A stretch of 64,000 nucleotides of DNA, from the NCBI GenBank assembly GCA_964413015.1, contig CAYPQZ010000006.1, positions 74,415 through 138,414 of the forward strand. Reading direction: 5' to 3'. The notes under the pieces are model-generated. The model searched no databases. It was not told the DNA's origin and worked only from the letters and a program-made list of their open reading frames with translations. Made by a program: the position numbers and the translations under genes. Source of the stretch: an uncultured Candidatus Saccharibacteria bacterium. Lineage in GTDB: Bacteria > Patescibacteriota > Minisyncoccia > Portnoybacterales > UBA2143. This document shows positions 2,837 to 61,665 of the stretch, one piece after another; positions within the stretch are counted from its first letter, which is position 1; every line of letters begins with the position of its first letter.

Positions 2837-3379
2837 ATGGCGATTCGCGATTTTTTAACTAATTTTCATATTGGCGCGGCTTCGGGATGGGATTTGTTTA
2901 TTGTCCTGATTTTTTTGATTGCCGTTTTAGTTTACGGATTTTTTCTGGGACGCAACCGGATGATAATCCTTCTTTTAAGCAGCTATTTTTCTTTGGCGAT
3001 TGTTGAAGTTCTGCCTTGGGAGAGAATCAGTTCTTTATCCTGGTTGGGAGTCGGTTCCGAACCTTCATCTTCTTTGAAAATTCTTATCTTTGCGGGAATT
3101 ATTCTGTTGTTCTACTTTTTAATCCCTCGCTCTATACTCAGCTCAACCCTGAGAATCAGAAACCGAGGAGAGGCCTCCTGGCTGCAATTATTCATCCTAA
3201 GCATTGTTCAGGTCGGTTTGCTGGCAATGGTTATCTTTTCATTTTTGCCGTCCCAACCATTAGGGAATCTTAGCTATTGGATAAAAAAGGCCTTTGTAGA
3301 TCCGGAAGCCCGTTTCGTCTGGATTGCTCTTCCGATTCTGGTCATGGTTTTGATGCGCCGGAGGAAGAAACCGGAATAG
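2837..3379 (+). CDS. Membrane protein, hypothetical (CvpA-like?)
   Basis: 180 aa with four or more TM helices and a basic C-terminus. Confidence 0.4.
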   Translation: MAIRDFLTNFHIGAASGWDLFIVLIFLIAVLVYGFFLGRNRMIILLLSSYFSLAIVEVLPWERISSLSWLGVGSEPSSSLKILIFAGIILLFYFLIPRSILSSTLRIRNRGEASWLQLFILSIVQVGLLAMVIFSFLPSQPLGNLSYWIKKAFVDPEARFVWIALPILVMVLMRRRKKPE

Positions 3380-17678: not shown

Positions 17679-18182
17679 CTACTCTTCTTTTATTTCTTTT
17701 CTAGCGGGTTCTGCTTCTTCGATGACAATAATCTTGATTTTGGCTTCTAAATTATGAGGAAATTCCACCGTGGTTTCGTACTCTCCCAACTCTTTAATCG
17801 GCGCGTCTATTTTAATCTGTTCTTTTTTTATCTCAAAATTTTCCGGCAGGCCTTCAATAAAAGATATATTTTCTTTTAATTTTCCGGCAATTTGACCGGC
17901 GCCAACCGTTCCGAAAAGACCACCTTCTTTATTTGTCTTAACTGGTATTTCTATCTCCAGGCCATCTATCTGGCTGGCTATTTTCTGGAAAAGCCCCAGT
18001 TCTTTTTCGGCTTTTCCGGCGTCAATTCTTTCCTGCTCTTTTATTTTACTGATTTCCGATTTAGTTGCCAAAACAGCTATCTGTTTGGGAATCAAAAAGT
18101 TGCGGCCGTACCCGTCAGCCACTTTTTTAACTTCTCCTTTTTTCCCTAAATTTTCCAAGTCTTTAAGTAAAACTACTTGCAT
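17679..18182 (-). CDS. rplI: 50S ribosomal protein L9
   Basis: MQVVLLKDLENLGKKGEVKKVADGYGRNFLIPK. The start is taken at the internal Met of the track ORF. Confidence 0.85.
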   Translation of the reverse strand: MQVVLLKDLENLGKKGEVKKVADGYGRNFLIPKQIAVLATKSEISKIKEQERIDAGKAEKELGLFQKIASQIDGLEIEIPVKTNKEGGLFGTVGAGQIAGKLKENISFIEGLPENFEIKKEQIKIDAPIKELGEYETTVEFPHNLEAKIKIIVIEEAEPARKEIKEE

Positions 18183-21506: not shown

Positions 21507-21742
21507 TTATTTAAGGATTGTCATTGAGGATTACGTCTCTTCGCCTTTGGCGAAGGGCGTGTCCGCCTGCCCGCCTCTGGAGGGAAAGGACGACTCCTTA
21601 AATTTTGACAAGGATAAACTGATAAGAACAGTCTTTAAAATGACGCCCTTGTGCTCAAGGGACATCATTTTAAGGACTGGCCTTATCATCATCTGTTCTT
21701 ATCGTATGACAATTCTTAAATTTTTAAAAGTCGACTGTTCTT
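21507..21742. repeat. Family-A modular repeat, full-length copy (L-module ... R hairpin)
   Basis: tttaaggattgtcattgaggattacgtc ... ccgcctctggagggaaaggacgactccttaaattttgacaagg ... ataagaacagtctttaaaatgacgcccttgtgctcaagggacatcattttaaggactggcctt. Confidence 0.85.
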
Positions 21743-28591: not shown

Positions 28592-28800
28592 TGAGAGCAG
28601 TGAACTTCCGCCGAAGGCGGAAAGTTACGCTCGCCTGTCCGCCTCTGGAGGGAAAGGACGATTCTTAAATTTTGACAAGCTTCCATGATAAGAACAGTCT
28701 TTAAAATGACGCTCTTGTTCAAGGGACATCATTTTAAGAATTGTCCTTATCATCAGCGTATTCCAAGGGACATTATTTTGAGAACTATCCTTATCGTCAA
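28573..28800. repeat. Family-A modular repeat, full-length copy
   Basis: aatttaaggattgtcattgag...ccgcctctggagggaaaggacgattcttaaattttgacaag...ataagaacagtctttaaaatgacgctcttgttcaagggacatcattttaagaattgtcctt. Confidence 0.85.
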
Positions 28801-29518: not shown

Positions 29519-29580
29519 AAAGGACAGTCCTTAAAATTGTACTCCTTGGAATAAGGATGTAATTTTAAAGACTGTCCTTT
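29519..29580. repeat. Family-A hairpin repeat (imperfect variant)
   Basis: aaggacagtccttaaaattgtactccttggaataaggatgtaattttaaagactgtcctt. Confidence 0.8.
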
Positions 29581-31698: not shown

Positions 31699-31873
31699 TC
31701 AACCCAGTAGAAGAATTTTGAAACAAATTTTAACAAAGTTAAAATTTAAATTAAAAATATTCAAAATTTCTCTACTGGGTCAACCCAGAAGAAGAATTTT
31801 GAAATAAATTTTAACAAAGTTAAAATTTAAATTAAAAATATTCAAAATTTCTCTACTGGGTCAACCCAGAATC
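31699..31873. repeat. Family-B element, tandem 81-bp direct repeat x2.15 (cccagtag variant); each unit is a ~20-bp inverted-repeat hairpin
   Basis: Units 31699..31779 and 31780..31860 plus a partial third, of the form tcaacccagtagaagaattttgaaa...ttcaaaatttctctactggg. Confidence 0.85.
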
Positions 31874-32803
31874 TTTTTCATGGGCCAATTCATCTAATCC
31901 TAACATCTCCATCTTCTGATTATATCTTTCTAAAGTTTCTTTTTCCGGCGAATCTGGATGGAACTCCAATTGCTGGTCATTAAAAATTACCCGTCCGCCA
32001 GCCCGATAAGTCAGCGGATCTTTCCTTATCCGTTGTGCCTGAAACTTCCTTAAAAGAAATTCTACTCCATCTCCTATTTTATTGTCAAGTATAAACTCTC
32101 TGGATTTTCTAAAAAAGGAAAAAAGAAAATGACTTTTGATTGTTTTTAAAAATCCTTTTTGGCCAATTGGATAAAAAGCCAAATAATCTTTAATCCATTG
32201 ATTAGCCCGTTGAAATTTTTTATCTAAATCTGGCTCGGCCTGCCAAACCGGAATTAAATGAGCATAAGTTTGAGCATTATACAGGCTGAAAAGAGGAATC
32301 CCTAAGGATTGGGTGGTGATATAGTGATTTAGGCAGAATCGATTTTCGGTCAGTTGGCCGTGCCTCCGCCGGCCGAGCAAATGGATAAACAAAGTTGTCA
32401 AAGCCCGGCAGGTCCAAATGCGACCGGCGCGGGTAACGATTAACAAATCTATGTCCGATTCTTTCCTTGGATTATTCATAGCCAAAGAGCCGCTTAACAT
32501 GACCAAACGGATAAAAGGAATATTTTGAATCAGCTTTATTGTCCAGCGCGCTTTTTTCCAGCGCTGGTCAGCCAGTTTCTGTCTTTCAATTCTTTGATCA
32601 GCTAAGCGGCTCTGGCCTTTTAAAAAATAGAAGCCGTTTTTTTGCTCTATTCCAGGATGATTTTCTAAAGCATCCAAGATTCTCTTTAATTTTATCGGCT
32701 GACATCTGGTTAGATATCTAAAAACCTCCCAGCCAGTCAAAGGCCGTTCCAAAACATCATAATAAGCCAAAGTAGCTAAAATTGATTTTTCCAAGTCAGC
32801 CAT
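31853..32803 (-). CDS. Nucleotidyltransferase-fold protein, hypothetical
   Basis: GS-x10-DIDLLIV is a minimal nucleotidyltransferase motif. The last 6 codons and the stop are supplied by the tandem repeat. Confidence 0.45.
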   Translation of the reverse strand: MADLEKSILATLAYYDVLERPLTGWEVFRYLTRCQPIKLKRILDALENHPGIEQKNGFYFLKGQSRLADQRIERQKLADQRWKKARWTIKLIQNIPFIRLVMLSGSLAMNNPRKESDIDLLIVTRAGRIWTCRALTTLFIHLLGRRRHGQLTENRFCLNHYITTQSLGIPLFSLYNAQTYAHLIPVWQAEPDLDKKFQRANQWIKDYLAFYPIGQKGFLKTIKSHFLFSFFRKSREFILDNKIGDGVEFLLRKFQAQRIRKDPLTYRAGGRVIFNDQQLEFHPDSPEKETLERYNQKMEMLGLDELAHEKDSGLTQ

Positions 32804-32839: not shown

Positions 32840-32900
32840 AAGGACAGTCCTTAAAATGATGTTCCTTAAGCACAAAGACGTCATTTTAAAGACTGTTCTT
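32840..32900. repeat. Family-A hairpin repeat
   Basis: aaaggacagtccttaaaatgatgttccttaagcacaaagacgtcattttaaagactgttctt. Confidence 0.8.
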
Positions 32901-33504: not shown

Positions 33505-33605
33505 AATACGGTTCTTAAATTTTGATAAGGATAAGCAGATAAGGACAGTCTTTAAAATGATATCCCTTGAGCACAAGGGCGTCATTTTAAAGACTGTCCT
33601 TTAAC
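33505..33605. repeat. Family-A repeat (R-hairpin with partial spacer)
   Basis: cttaaattttgataagg...ataaggacagtctttaaaatgatatcccttgagcacaagggcgtcattttaaagactgtcctt. Confidence 0.85.
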
Positions 33606-42728: not shown

Positions 42729-42856
42729 CCCCGTAGAGAAATTTTGAAACATTCGCCTAGGCGAATAATAAACGGGGTAAAAAATAAGTACACGAATAAA
42801 AAGAGTTCCGAATAATTAAAAATTAGTGAATTTAAATTCAAAATTCTTCTACGGGG
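42729..42856. repeat. Family-B element (TIR ccccgtagagaaattttgaa ... ttcaaaattcttctacgggg)
   Basis: About 128 bp. The right TIR overlaps the first 3 nt of tRNA-Leu. gggcgag is found on both flanks. Confidence 0.8.
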
Positions 42857-42936
42857 CGAGTGGTGAAATGGCAAACACGCTAGCTTCAGGAGCTAGTGGA
42901 GGCAACTCCTTGCGGGTTCAAATCCCGCCTCGCCCA
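42854..42936 (+). tRNA. tRNA-Leu (anticodon CAG), long variable arm
   Basis: Acceptor GGGCGAG/CTCGCCC, anticodon arm CTAGC-TTCAGGA-GCTAG, variable arm TGGAGGCAACTCCTT, T-arm GCGGG-TTCAAAT-CCCGC. Confidence 0.85.
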
Positions 42937-43011
42937 CGCGTTTTTTATCCAAAACTTGTTTTGGGTATAAAAAACAGTGTCCGCCTCTGTCGGACTATAA
43001 ACAGCAACTTT

Positions 43012-45387: not shown

Positions 45388-45462
45388 AATCTCAGTTCTT
45401 TATTTTAATTAATCTAAAAATCATAAAAGTCCCGGACGAACGGGGCTTTTATGATTAAAAAA

Positions 45463-45580
45463 AAGACAGTCCTTAAAATGATGTCCCTTGAGCACAAAGG
45501 CGTCATTTTAAAGACTGTCCTTATCAGTTTCCCCTTGTCAAAATTTAAATCCTTAAATTTTTAAACTGTCCTTTAACTAA
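45463..45580. repeat. Family-A repeat (R-hairpin plus spacer and short end module)
   Basis: gacagtccttaaaatgatgtcccttgagcacaaaggcgtcattttaaagactgtcctt...ccccttgtcaaaatttaaatccttaaatttttaaactgtccttt. Confidence 0.85.
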
Positions 45581-47659: not shown

Positions 47660-47826
47660 AAAGGACAGTCCTTAAAATGATGTCCCTTGAGCACAAGGGC
47701 GTCATTTTAAAGACTGTCCTTATCTGCTCCCCTTTGTCAAAATTTAAGGAGTCGTCCTTTCAAACACGCCCTTCGCAATTCTGCAAAGGGACGTGACTCT
47801 CAATGACAATCCTTAAATTTTTTAAT
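47660..47826. repeat. Family-A modular repeat, full copy in inverted orientation (R hairpin ... L-module)
   Basis: aaggacagtccttaaaatgatgtcccttgagcacaagggcgtcattttaaagactgtcctt...tcaaaatttaaggagtcgtcctttc...gacgtgactctcaatgacaatccttaaatttt. Confidence 0.85.
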
Positions 47827-48020: not shown

Positions 48021-48022
48021 AC

Positions 48023-48158
48023 ACCGTAGAAGAATTTTGAATTTTAATCAATAACATTGATTAATAATCTAAGATTCTTCCTTATTTAATTATTCCTATA
48101 TACCCCGTTTTATTAAATTAAATATTTAATTTAATTATTTCAAAATTTCTCTACGGGG
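48023..48158. repeat. Family-B element (TIR caccgtagaagaattttgaa ... ttcaaaatttctctacgggg) with TCATA direct repeats on both flanks
   Basis: It fills the entire fdx-fba intergenic region. The left TCATA (48017..48021) carries the fdx start codon and the right TCATA (48159..48163) carries the fba stop codon. Confidence 0.85.
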
Positions 48159-52335: not shown

Positions 52336-52505
52336 ATAAGGACATTCCTTAAAATGATGTCCCTTGAGCACAAGGGCGTCATTTTAAAGACTGTTCTTAT
52401 CAGTTTGTCTTATCTGTTTCCCCTTGTCAAAATTTAAGGAGTCGTCCTTTCCCTCCGGAGGCAGACATATGACAATCCTTAAATTTTTCAAAACTGTCCT
52501 TTAAC
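52336..52505. repeat. Family-A modular repeat, full copy (inverted orientation) between the two tkt halves
   Basis: aaggacattccttaaaatgatgtcccttgagcacaagggcgtcattttaaagactgttctt...ccccttgtcaaaatttaaggagtcgtcctttccctccggagg...atgacaatccttaaatttttcaaaactgtccttt. Confidence 0.85.
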
Positions 52506-53417: not shown

Positions 53418-54050
53418 TTAATGACATATTTTTAAATCTTCAATTGCTTTTCTAGGATTGTCGCTTTTAAAAATTGCGCTGCCGCTAGCTAAAAGATTGG
53501 CCCCGGCCCGGATAACCAACGGAGCGGTTTTTGGGTTTATGCCCCCATCCACTTCTATATTAACATCTTTATACTTCTTTCGCAATTGCTTAATTTTCCC
53601 CAGAGTTTCTTCTATCAAATCTTGGCCTCCCTGGCCGGGATTGACTGTCATAACTAAAACCAAATCAAGGTCTTGGATAAAGTTATCCACTGTTTCTATC
53701 GGCGTTTCTGGACTAATCGCCAAGCCGAATTCCAGGCCGGCTTGTTTAATCTTTTTTATTATTTCTTTGTGCTGGTTCGTTGATTCATAATGGATAATAA
53801 TTCGCTCAACTCCAGAATCAATCCACTGGTCAACTTCTTCTTCAGGATTCCGGACCATTAAATGAACCTCTATATTCAAATCGGTTTCCAAATCTTTTAA
53901 CTCAATCGGATCGCCCCAAGTTTGATTATTTACAAAATGACCGTCCATTACGTCTAACTGTACCCAATCAACATATGGCTCTACTTTCTTTATTCTGGAC
54001 TTCAACTCCTCAAAGCTTTCAACCATGATAACAGGGATAATCTGAATCAT
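53418..54050 (-). CDS. rpe: Ribulose-phosphate 3-epimerase
   Basis: LDVMDGHFV, MTVNPGQGGQ and VDGGIN. Confidence 0.9.
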   Translation of the reverse strand: MIQIIPVIMVESFEELKSRIKKVEPYVDWVQLDVMDGHFVNNQTWGDPIELKDLETDLNIEVHLMVRNPEEEVDQWIDSGVERIIIHYESTNQHKEIIKKIKQAGLEFGLAISPETPIETVDNFIQDLDLVLVMTVNPGQGGQDLIEETLGKIKQLRKKYKDVNIEVDGGINPKTAPLVIRAGANLLASGSAIFKSDNPRKAIEDLKICH

Positions 54051-54484
54051 TGTTCCATTTCCTCTATTTTATTTAATCTTCTAACATGTCTTTCATCGCC
54101 GCTAAATTCTGTTTTTATCCAGATCCGGACAATTTTCTTGGCAGTCTCTGAATCCACTATTTTACTCCCCAGACAAAGTACATTGGCATTATTATGTTCC
54201 CTTGACTGTAAAGCGGTAAAATCATCCCAGCAAACGGCTGCCCGGACTCCTTTCATTTTATTAGCCGCCATGGCCATGCCAAATCCAGTAGCGCAAATTA
54301 AAATCCCTTGCCCGTTATTTTCAACTGTTTTTTCAGCTACTGCTGAAGCAAAATCAGGATAGTCATCCTCCAATTCCAACTTTTTATTCCCTAAATCTTC
54401 ATATTCATGCCCTAATTCCTCAAGATATTTCTTGAGTTCTTCCTTTAGATTAAAACCGGCATGGTCAGCGCCTAAATAAATCAT
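54047..54484 (-). CDS. rpiB: Ribose-5-phosphate isomerase B
   Basis: MIYLGADHAGF..K and CATGFGMAMAANK. Confidence 0.9.
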   Translation of the reverse strand: MIYLGADHAGFNLKEELKKYLEELGHEYEDLGNKKLELEDDYPDFASAVAEKTVENNGQGILICATGFGMAMAANKMKGVRAAVCWDDFTALQSREHNNANVLCLGSKIVDSETAKKIVRIWIKTEFSGDERHVRRLNKIEEMEQ

Positions 54485-54485
54485 A

Positions 54486-54621
54486 CCCCGTAGAAGAATT
54501 TTGAATTCTAATCAATTTTATCGATTAGCAATCTAAAAAATTTTCACTTAATTATTTATAGAACGCCCCGTTTTATTAAATTAAATCAAAGATTTAATTG
54601 TTTCAAAATTTCTCTACGGGG
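54486..54621. repeat. Family-B element (TIR ccccgtagaagaattttgaa ... ttcaaaatttctctacgggg) with TCATA direct repeats on both flanks
   Basis: It fills the rpiB-gap intergenic region. The left TCATA (54481..54485) contains the rpiB start and the right TCATA (54622..54626) contains the gap stop. Confidence 0.85.
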
Positions 54622-55602
54622 TCATAGTTTTTTCCCAATAAACTCTGCAAATTCAGCCAAGCGGCAGGCGTATCCATATTCATTATCATACCAGGCCAAA
54701 ACCTTAACCAATTTTTTCTCTTGAACCATGGTTGAAGCCGCATCAACAATTGCGGAGAAAGAACTCCCTTTGTAATCAACCGAAACTAATGGACTTTCTT
54801 CAACTCTTAAAATCCCTTTTAAATTATCCTGTTCTGAGGCCTTTTTAAAAGCAATGTTAATTCCTTCAACATCCGTTTCTTTTTTAACTTTAGCTACAAA
54901 ATCAACCAACGAAACAACCGGGGTAGGAACCCTTATGGCCAAACCGTGAATTTTGCCTTTTAGTTCAGGGATTGTTTTTATTACAGCAATTGCTGCTCCA
55001 GTAGTCGTCGGGACCATTGACAGGGCCGCTGAACGAGCCCGGCGCAAATCCTTTCGATGAGGAGAATCCAAAAGCTTCTGGTCATTGGTATAACTATGGA
55101 TCGCAGTCATTAAACCGGACTCTATCTCGAATTCCTGATGAAGAATATTGGCTATAGGAGCCAGACAATTAGTCGTACATGACGCCATAGAGACAATATT
55201 ATCTTTTTCAGGGTTATAATTTTCTTGGTTAACGCCTAAAACAAAATGAGGCATAGCCTCACTTTTAGAAGGAGCTGAAATAATAACTTTTTTAGCTCCA
55301 GCTGATAAATGTTTTTGGGCATCTTCTATTTTGGTAAACAGGCCGGTGCATTCCAGGACCACATCCACTTCCATTTTCCCCCACGGCAGCTTAGCCGGAT
55401 CTTTTTCAGCTAAAACTTTATCTTCCGGTAAAGGATTCTCATATTTTCCGTAAACCGAATCATATTTTAATAGATGAGCCAAAGTTTTGGCGTCGGTTAA
55501 ATCATTAATCGCGACTATCTCTAAATTCGGATGTTTGTCCAGAATCCTACGAAAAACTGGCCGGCCAATTCGGCCAAACCCATTAATTGCGATTTTAATC
55601 AT
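54622..55602 (-). CDS. gap: Glyceraldehyde-3-phosphate dehydrogenase
   Basis: INGFGRIGR and ASCTTNCLAP. Confidence 0.95.
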   Translation of the reverse strand: MIKIAINGFGRIGRPVFRRILDKHPNLEIVAINDLTDAKTLAHLLKYDSVYGKYENPLPEDKVLAEKDPAKLPWGKMEVDVVLECTGLFTKIEDAQKHLSAGAKKVIISAPSKSEAMPHFVLGVNQENYNPEKDNIVSMASCTTNCLAPIANILHQEFEIESGLMTAIHSYTNDQKLLDSPHRKDLRRARSAALSMVPTTTGAAIAVIKTIPELKGKIHGLAIRVPTPVVSLVDFVAKVKKETDVEGINIAFKKASEQDNLKGILRVEESPLVSVDYKGSSFSAIVDAASTMVQEKKLVKVLAWYDNEYGYACRLAEFAEFIGKKL

Positions 55603-59343: not shown

Positions 59344-59478
59344 GCCCCGTAGAAGAACTTTGACATTCACCTTAAATATCAAAATCTTAATTAATGTTTT
59401 TAATTTATTCTGTGTTTATACACCCCGTATGTCTATTTATTCGCCTTGGGCGAATGAGTCAAAGTTTCTCTACGGGGC
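59344..59478. repeat. Family-B element (TIR gccccgtagaagaactttga ... tcaaagtttctctacggggc)
   Basis: Lies between the dsbA-like start and the mtaD-like stop. The internal palindrome ttcgccttgggcgaa is shared with the 42729 copy. Confidence 0.8.
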
Positions 59479-61439: not shown

Positions 61440-61665
61440 AAAGGACAGTCCTTAAAATGATGTCCCTTGGGATAAGGACTATGATAAGGACAGTCCTTAA
61501 AATGATGTCCCTTGAGCACAAGGGCGTCATTTTAAAGACTGTTCTTATCAGTTTCCCTTTATCAAAATTTAAGGAGTCGTCCTTTCCCTCCAGAGACGGG
61601 CAGGCGGACACGCCCTTTGCCTTCTGTAAAGGGCGTGATCCTCAATGACAATCCTTAAATTTTTC
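61440..61665. repeat. Family-A modular repeat, full copy with duplicated half-hairpin (inverted orientation)
   Basis: aaggacagtccttaaaatgatgtcccttgg... then a full hairpin, then ...tcaaaatttaaggagtcgtcctttccctccagagacggg...gggcgtgatcctcaatgacaatccttaaattttt. Confidence 0.85.

Follow-up and report, generated by a model that had tools for sequence, protein, structure and literature searches.

A miniature inverted-repeat element in the gap/rpiB overlap shares its ends with elements that encode a GIY-YIG nuclease

The 64,000-nt stretch of DNA analysed here, which we call the window, contains a gene neighbourhood that reads, by NCBIfam assignment, glutaredoxin-like gene, gap, rpiB, rpe and the N-terminal half of a split transketolase. 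Between the stop codon of gap and the start codon of rpiB lies an element of 136 nt (54486-54621) whose junctions read ...AAATCATA|CCCCGTAGAAGAATTTTGAA ... TTCAAAATTTCTCTACGGGG|TCATAGTT... and whose ends are 20-nt terminal inverted repeats (TIRs), complementary at 18 of 20 positions. No open reading frame (ORF) of 40 or more residues is contained within it in the ORF list. The initial annotation had placed TCATA on both sides of this element, with the ATG of rpiB in the left copy and the TGA of gap in the right; the sequence has both copies, at 54481-54485 and 54622-54626, and the ORF coordinates confirm the two codons within them (Table 1). On the minus strand the left TIR reads UUCAAAAUUCUUCUACGGGG and forms the transcription-downstream end of the element, 1 nt ahead of the rpiB AUG. 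We consider it likely that the element is a MITE (miniature inverted-repeat transposable element) that was inserted in an ATGA overlap of gap and rpiB and was mobilised in trans by a GIY-YIG nuclease whose gene is bounded by TIRs.

Table 1. Coordinates in the window of the element, its host genes, its sister copies and an unrelated repeat family.
Feature	Position	Strand	Remarks
gap (type I GAPDH)	54622..55602	-	host gene, stop codon inside right TCATA; NCBIfam E 3e-123
Target-site duplication copy 2	54622..54626	-	holds gap stop codon TGA (54624..54622)
TIR TTCAAAATTTCTCTACGGGG	54602..54621		conserved dinucleotide swap relative to other end (GAGAAA vs GAAGAA)
Internal hairpin 1 (AATTAAATC AAA GATTTAATT)	54579..54599		position kept, stem sequence varies by copy
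Internal third CCCCGT end motif (ACGGGG on minus strand)	54566..54571		near-invariant in ~130-nt subfamily
Internal hairpin 2 (CTAATCAAT TTT ATCGATTAG)	54508..54528		differs among copies
TIR CCCCGTAGAAGAATTTTGAA	54486..54505		from sequence, motif scan and alignment
Target-site duplication copy 1	54481..54485	-	TCATA on plus strand, TATGA on minus strand; holds rpiB start codon (54484..54482)
rpiB	54047..54484	-	host gene, start codon inside left TCATA; NCBIfam RpiB E 6e-57
Two 77-nt tandem copies	31703..31860		TCAA/TTGA flanks, on -35 box of promoter-like site upstream of groES
Sister copy, opposite orientation	42729..42856		CGAG/CGAG flanks; adjoins tRNA-Leu (42854-42937)
Sister copy	48022..48158		TCATA/TCATA flanks; between fba (class II aldolase) stop and small ferredoxin gene start
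Sister copy	59345..59477		at ATG of thioredoxin-like lipoprotein gene; plus-strand flanks CATG and CAGG
Family A sites	1617-1674, 21624-21684, 28690-28748, 29520-29579, 32840-32900, 33541-33601, 45462-45522, 47661-47721, 52338-52398, 61441-61546		unrelated repeat

The insertion can be read from relatives in which the same junction is empty. Loci L168-L171 keep the order grx-gap-rpiB-rpe-tktN and encode RpiB 84-85% identical to that of the window, and at their junction there is no element: gap and rpiB overlap in ATGA, and CTATGATT occurs once, in the context GGAAAAAAACTATGATTTATTTAGG. The filled site of the window reads GGGAAAAAACTATGA, then the 136 nt, then TATGATTTATTTAGG, with two TATGA against the one in L168-L171. 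Because the empty site has a single copy, the TCATA flanks are a true 5-bp target-site duplication and not a coincidence, and the element entered the ATGA overlap with both reading frames preserved. A second pair of empty and filled sites involves a related metagenome-assembled genome (MAG) with about 70-72% nucleotide identity in genes to the window. In that MAG the start codon of rplI is occupied by a copy (L032, 6918-7049) flanked by a duplicated TATG; in the window the orthologous rplI start (about 18176-18182, near 18180, minus strand) is unoccupied, with TATG present once. The initial annotation had thought chance an unlikely source of the identical flanks, and had named a lack of duplications at further copies as evidence that would count against it. 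The empty site in L168-L171 proves the duplication, the rplI start is a second empty site, and many more copies carry a duplication.

The gap/rpiB element has close companions in the window. Its TIR motif matches ten times at three or fewer mismatches, compared with 0.02 matches expected from shuffled sequence, and nhmmer with a profile of the repeat family (family B) delimits six copies, four of them long (42729-42856, 48022-48158, 54486-54621 and 59345-59477) and two short and in tandem (31703-31779 and 31784-31860). The same architecture had been reported at a second site, and the 48022-48158 copy is indeed flanked by TCATA on both sides; it also has the internal stretch CCCCGTTTTATTAAATTAAAT and hairpins in common with the 54486 copy, as had been claimed for it under the coordinate 48023. 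The flanks of the 59345-59477 copy, CATG and CAGG, fit a duplication in which one position has since decayed. Relative to a co-oriented upstream gene, four of five window loci are oriented alike, and relative to the downstream gene or tRNA all five are.

Two of these window sites have features of their own. The 42729 copy is inserted into the 5' end of the tRNA-Leu(CAG) gene, where the terminal GGG of the element now supplies the first three G of the acceptor stem, and the gene is still called intact by ARAGORN and Rfam. The region of the tandem pair (31699-31872) has an 81-nt period that includes the TCAA/TTGA duplication, and the beginning of a third copy is present. The right-hand TTGA of the pair is the -35 box of a TTGACG-17-TAAGAT promoter-like site before groES, and the upstream gene, at 31853-32803, terminates at the TAG inside the TIR.

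Beyond the window, 86 loci matched the exact pattern when one genome per species was scanned, and 77 elements were extracted from genome contigs and oriented with the end CCCCGTAGAGAAATTTTGA first. They come from about two dozen genomes, nearly all of them MAGs of the Candidate Phyla Radiation (CPR, or Patescibacteria). The family ends are CCCCGTAGAGAAATTTTGA / TCAAAATTCTTCTACGGGG, and the elements fall into size classes of about 66-83, 103-170, 209-222 and 296-351 nt. Paired ends occur almost only in Patescibacteria/CPR MAGs, among them Parcubacteria, Saccharibacteria, Magasanikiibacteriota, Minisyncoccales and Kazan, and the unpaired matches in other phyla agree with a rough estimate of about 35 chance matches. 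Within CPR genomes, the unpaired TIR singletons that were inspected proved to be contig-end truncations, decayed partners, solo ends or chance matches, and no distant partners or transposases were found beside them. Viral contigs held just 13 unpaired single TIR matches, which we read as chance, and gave no sign of phage carriage.

The target sites of this family share a short motif. Most of the 77 elements are flanked by direct repeats, of which TATG (n=27), TATGA (n=6) and TTGA (n=4) recur, and CGAG, CTTTG, TCCA, TAA, AAAG and others occur in single cases. The initial annotation had suggested a preference for ATGA-type junctions, and (T)ATG(A) is indeed favoured. In copies with the TIR type of the window, orientation is tied to the strand of TATG; the family prefers TATG and enters it in a fixed orientation, and the reconstructed targets show no specificity past TATG. 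Thirty-eight of the 77 elements have a junction ATG from which an ORF of 60 codons or more extends, and in 31 this ATG is also start-like, with no more than 15 in-frame codons upstream; among 3805 control TATG sites from the same loci, 9% are start-like. This start-codon bias may arise from a preference for such targets together with purifying selection, the genomes being very compact. The sequences around start codons in these genomes are rich in A and T, with T at -1 in 54% of cases, and lack a Shine-Dalgarno signal. The worry that the insertion deprived rpiB of its Shine-Dalgarno site is weakened, since these contexts show no such signal at all.

Other host signals are hit as well. TTGA-flanked copies lie on -35 boxes, with a -10 box 17 nt further on. 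Three copies adjoin stable-RNA genes, namely the 42729 copy of the window (tRNA-Leu) and those at L034 and L062, and the ends of stable-RNA genes are therefore recurrent landing sites. The L062 copy (351-428) abuts the 3' CCA end of a tmRNA gene with a TCCA duplication, and the L034 copy (3206-3280) abuts the 5' end of a tRNA-Gly gene. The two ends of an element can be told apart by a dinucleotide swap about 9-11 nt from the tips (GAAGAA vs GAGAAA; 54494-54499 vs 54608-54613 in the window), present in 24 of 24 aligned copies. An analogous swap occurs in other TIR subfamilies, where its polarity relative to the ORF differs by subfamily.

The longest copies of the family contain a gene. Copies of 296-351 nt with identical TIRs hold one ORF of 87-92 residues, co-oriented with the host gene; those with identical ends are L015, L048, L064 and L078, plus the frameshifted L013. 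The ORF matches the Pfam GIY-YIG domain (PF01541) with E values of 3e-15 to 3e-20. In an alignment of nine sequences (A1), Y5, Y16, G18, R26, H30 and E62 are invariant; in one of 48 sequences (A4), Y5, Y16, G18 and E62 remain so, and R26 and H30 are present in at least 90%. An AlphaFold model (pLDDT 86.5) has the GIY-YIG alpha/beta fold, with UPF0213 BH0048 and Slx1 as top matches in the PDB (probability 1.0) and I-TevI as a weaker one; the nearest solved sequences are likewise UPF0213 proteins (EF2693, BH0048) and the structure-specific nuclease Slx1. The ORF is thus predicted, from sequence and model, to be an intact GIY-YIG nuclease of the Slx1/UPF0213 type. Within one MAG, the nuclease-bearing L048 and the miniature L008 have a 20-nt 5' end and a 69-nt ungapped 3' block in common, and because they share both ends, the miniature forms are deletion derivatives of nuclease-bearing copies. 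The element at gap/rpiB belongs to this family, has the ends of the nuclease-bearing copies and sits, as others do, at a start codon. It has TIRs and a target-site duplication, is small, non-coding, multi-copy and dispersed, and has a longer counterpart with the same ends, as a MITE does.

A protein scan of metagenomes, with four close nuclease sequences as the query, yielded 600 candidate stretches, among which at least 457 relatives were confirmed and 80 loci were kept. In most of these 80 the ORF is packed between TIRs of several co-varying subfamilies (for example CCCCGTAGTAGAATTTCC, TCCCGTAGTAGAATTTTA, CCAGGTAGTGAAAATTCGAC and CCCGTTAGAG), and about half show clean duplications of 3-6 bp, where the right junction usually holds a host ATG; the A of this ATG is at the same time the last TIR base in the TCCC...GGGA type. 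Most copies have 15-23 nt between the nuclease stop and the right end, and in the shortest subfamily the stop shares bases with the rebuilt host ATG, in the form ATGA. Where the ORF has no ATG of its own, it is in frame with the duplicated host ATG in seven of eight cases (L022, L024, L082, L108, L126, L154, L157), and database proteins that start MPRREIS..., the translated TIR, show the same read-through. A general rule of in-frame fusion between the duplicated host ATG and the nuclease ORF was rejected, since 10-12 of 31 in frame is the chance level. The protein family comprises at least 2437 clusters, annotated just as 'GIY-YIG nuclease family protein' or similar.

Individual loci illustrate how such elements can be arranged. 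L082 (minus strand, about 310-570) has other TIRs and a start-less nuclease ORF that reads from the duplicated host ATG through the TIR, with its stop, TAG, inside the right TIR 6 nt ahead of the host ATG. At L022 (2418-2890) and L024 (4665-5113) a nuclease element and a family-B miniature lie adjacent within one ATG duplication; the nuclease elements there have other TIR sequences and an ORF without a start codon of its own that reads from the duplicated host ATG.

We suggest that a full-length member of the family, some 280-350 bp long and located at another site of the genome, would provide the nuclease in trans; this protein would recognise the TIRs, and its cuts would mobilise full-length and miniature copies alike. 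For recognition the TIRs may take the form of a hairpin or cruciform, a plausible substrate because the closest structural relatives of the nuclease, the Slx1-type enzymes, cut such branched DNA. The nuclease would make a staggered cut in the target, in this case with a 5-nt stagger at TATGA; the gaps would then be filled, and host repair and ligation would finish the event. One TATGA now serves as the gap stop and the other as the rpiB start, so that neither gene is damaged. The variable length of the duplication would suit a loose mechanism of this kind better than a classical transpososome, and in very compact genomes the surviving copies would be those whose duplication rebuilds a host signal, be it a start codon, a -35 box or a tRNA end. 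In this scheme the nuclease is the putative mobility enzyme. We infer the chemistry of joining, as well as any effect that the insertion may have on the expression of gap and rpiB.

Several considerations weigh against this scheme. GIY-YIG enzymes are hydrolytic, and we know of no strand-transfer or joining activity among them; integration by way of such a nuclease would require host ligation or repair. The physical link between ORF and TIRs would be equally expected if the ORF were a mere passenger. The duplications vary from 3 to 6 bp, so the cut would be less precise than that of classical transposases, and the association with start codons could stem largely from purifying selection and not from the insertion machinery. 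Finally, there is no GIY-YIG gene within the 64-kb window.

An unlikely but not negligible alternative is that the MITE is moved by a conventional transposase (DDE or similar) encoded elsewhere, with the GIY-YIG ORF as a passenger or selfish hitch-hiker. TIRs with short duplications are the classical signature of DDE transposition, GIY-YIG nucleases have no known joining activity, and many genomes hold miniature copies only. However, across the 86 genome and 80 metagenome loci nothing but a GIY-YIG ORF or non-coding DNA lies between the TIR pairs, every ORF-bearing copy having that gene and nothing else. Neither a DDE nor any other recognised transposase (serine, tyrosine, HUH) occurs between these ends at the same loci, complete genomes being outside the scan. 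The ORF moreover fills the space between the TIRs nearly to the base, several TIR subfamilies each have their own nuclease variant, and a duplication that varies between 3 and 6 bp is atypical for DDE enzymes.

The structure of the element bears on a different possibility. Folded as RNA, the element with its flanks reaches -41.4 kcal/mol (z -5.6), and as DNA -25 kcal/mol (z -5.8); its dominant part is the TIR stem, the base of which brings the gap stop beside the rpiB start. A consensus structure over 24 aligned copies recovers the TIR stem alone, with compensatory changes at three pairs and pairing kept in other copies, and with one G.U and one A.C position that are invariant because the two ends differ by the dinucleotide swap. 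The internal hairpins are too variable in length for alignment, and they were therefore counted separately against shuffled sequence. Just inside one TIR, 73% of 45 copies have a perfect stem of at least 6 bp, compared with 9% of shuffled sequences; the stems at this position comprise seven or more unrelated sequences. This hairpin is a genuine conserved structure; the sequence of the interior is conserved among close copies only. Of the conserved internal structured region that the initial annotation had envisaged, the position of the hairpin thus stands, whereas the interior shows neither wider sequence conservation nor, in the alignment of 24 copies, a consensus structure outside the TIR stem.

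The further proposal, of a small RNA or a protein-binding site in the interior, fared less well. Rfam 15 finds only three tRNAs in the whole window at the gathering threshold, and the best match in the element region at E<=10 has an E value of 1.3 and 17.8 bits, against a gathering score of 122. A promoter scan of the element returned one weak promoter-like match where 1.4 are expected by chance, and a terminator scan found none inside it. The conserved hairpins are what speaks for a small RNA, and the idea is not supported.

More generally, we regard as very improbable any role of the element, original or acquired, as a structured RNA or regulatory site that serves the host, for example as a hairpin between the cistrons that controls the translation of rpiB or the stability of the mRNA, as a small RNA or as a protein-binding site. 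Such a role would be in keeping with the strong fold, with a stem base that sets the gap stop beside the rpiB start, with a TIR-adjacent hairpin kept despite varied stem sequences, and with the orientation bias in the window. That bias, however, is explained by orientation-specific insertion at the asymmetric TATG; the copies are scattered at unrelated genes, the TIR stem is the sole consensus structure, Rfam offers nothing above noise, and promoter and terminator signals do not exceed those of shuffled sequence. Close relatives with an intact ATGA overlap have no element at the junction and, because it is absent there, the element is not an ancestral regulatory RNA of the gap/rpiB operon. A later exaptation as a host-functional RNA or site is conceivable.

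Elements of the IS200/IS605 group and their derivatives, including the PATE and repetitive extragenic palindromic (REP) repeats, resemble ours in being very small, dependent on hairpins and inserted by a short specific motif. IS200/IS605 elements have no TIRs, make no duplication and use an HUH transposase. That the element is a REP/BIME-like or IS200/IS605-type palindromic repeat, spread by a single-strand HUH/RAYT mechanism with flanks that are merely its target motif, has next to no likelihood: its ends do contain the GTAG tetranucleotide that the available text of PMC3733652 gives as a mark of many REP families, and it is rich in hairpins, but the empty site demonstrates that TATGA was duplicated and not merely recognised, which single-strand HUH elements do not do, matching flanks are also found at copies outside TATG (CGAG, TTGA, CTTTG, TCCA), and a RAYT or TnpA gene was noticed beside none of the copies, though not in a systematic search.

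The insertion of a nuclease-mobilised MITE, which we prefer, has points of contact with several known systems. Bacterial MITEs such as Correia/NEMIS of Neisseria, RUP of Streptococcus pneumoniae and MITEAba12 are likewise about 80-170 nt long, with TIRs and a short target-site duplication; they too are dispersed at gene boundaries, non-coding, hairpin-prone when transcribed, and deletion derivatives of a longer element with the same ends. The partners of the known bacterial MITEs are insertion sequences with DDE transposases, and Correia duplicates TA. In contrast, the only partner found for the present family encodes a GIY-YIG nuclease, the preferred target is TATG at start codons, the 3-6-bp duplication rebuilds host signals, and the hosts are CPR bacteria. 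The best sequence and fold matches of the partner protein, Slx1 and UPF0213 (YhbQ-like, COG2827), have its catalytic residues in common. They are chromosomal repair or structure-specific nucleases, Slx1 having a RING/PHD domain and needing Slx4, and to our knowledge none is TIR-bounded or mobile; unlike Slx1, the protein of the element is a bare domain of about 87 residues.

GIY-YIG homing endonuclease genes (I-TevI, the phage Seg proteins) are also selfish DNA with a GIY-YIG nuclease as the sole gene. Homing enzymes add a distinct DNA-binding domain to the nuclease and target a single long site; their spread into the cognate allele goes through double-strand-break repair and involves neither TIRs nor duplications. 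Here there is no extra domain, hundreds of different genes serve as sites, and TIRs and duplications are present. A homing endonuclease gene is ruled out by the bare 87-92-residue domain, the many target genes, the TIRs and the duplications.

Two published systems come closer in one respect each. In Penelope-like retroelements a GIY-YIG nuclease opens the target and the duplications are short and variable, according to the available text of PMC8557442. Those elements are eukaryotic, kilobases long and RNA-mediated by a reverse transcriptase, whereas the present one is a TIR-bounded DNA element without reverse transcriptase. Insertions in CPR rRNA genes that encode GIY-YIG proteins, described as 'not similar to either intron', lie at scattered non-conserved sites (PMC11270868, in its available text). 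They occur in the same organisms and may belong to the same family as the elements described here; the available text of that paper gives no TIRs, duplications, miniatures or start-codon insertion for them.

The architecture of the gap/rpiB element is that of an ordinary MITE. It departs from the bacterial MITEs described so far in the nature of the only partner found, in the start-codon-centred targets and in a duplication that rebuilds host signals. In the full-text literature that was searched, with subscription-only literature and ISfinder outside its scope, neither GIY-YIG elements bounded by TIRs nor MITEs of Patescibacteria are described, and we provisionally treat the parent family as undescribed. 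It is quite possible, though we stop short of favouring the idea, that family B is the miniature form of an undescribed class of bacterial mobile element, made of self-contained ~0.3-kb units in which a bare Slx1/UPF0213-type GIY-YIG nuclease is the sole gene. Such units would move with TIRs and 3-6-bp duplications and land on start codons, -35 boxes or tRNA ends, the host signal being rebuilt from the duplicated bases; the nuclease of some subfamilies, lacking a start codon, would be read from the duplicated host ATG, with its stop just before or overlapping the rebuilt ATG, and would so ride on the translation of the host gene.

The window itself appears to come from such a host. A MAG labelled 'Firmicutes bacterium ML8_F2' encodes a protein with 100% identity to its RpiB, whose closest named relatives are from Parcubacteria and Portnoybacteria. 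The gene content, a split transketolase included, the absent Shine-Dalgarno signal and these nearest relatives point to a Parcubacteria-like CPR genome. An unrelated repeat, family A, is also present: a palindrome of ~61 nt, AAGGACAGTCCTTAAAATGAyGTCCCTTGAGCACAAGGGCGTCATTTTAAAGACTGTCCTT, often with the adjoining modules TTGTCAAAATTTAAGGAGTCGTCCTTTCC and ATGACAATCCTTAAATTTTT, at no fewer than 11 intergenic sites of the window and also in the related MAG JAHJUH01.

If the nuclease is the mobility enzyme, a hydrolytic nuclease of ~90 residues can drive transposon-like spread with TIRs and duplications. These elements would then form a new class of prokaryotic transposable elements, would be the smallest gene-carrying transposon-like elements known, and would set a new lower size limit for a mobile element that carries a gene. 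They would also account for thousands of genes annotated as 'GIY-YIG nuclease family protein' and for many intergenic hairpin repeats of CPR genomes. For gene calling, start codons that directly follow CTACGGGG, and short ORFs that read through a TIR, would mark element junctions. For the relation between compact genomes and mobile DNA, the family suggests that insertions can persist where their duplication regenerates a start codon, a stop codon, a -35 box or a tRNA end.

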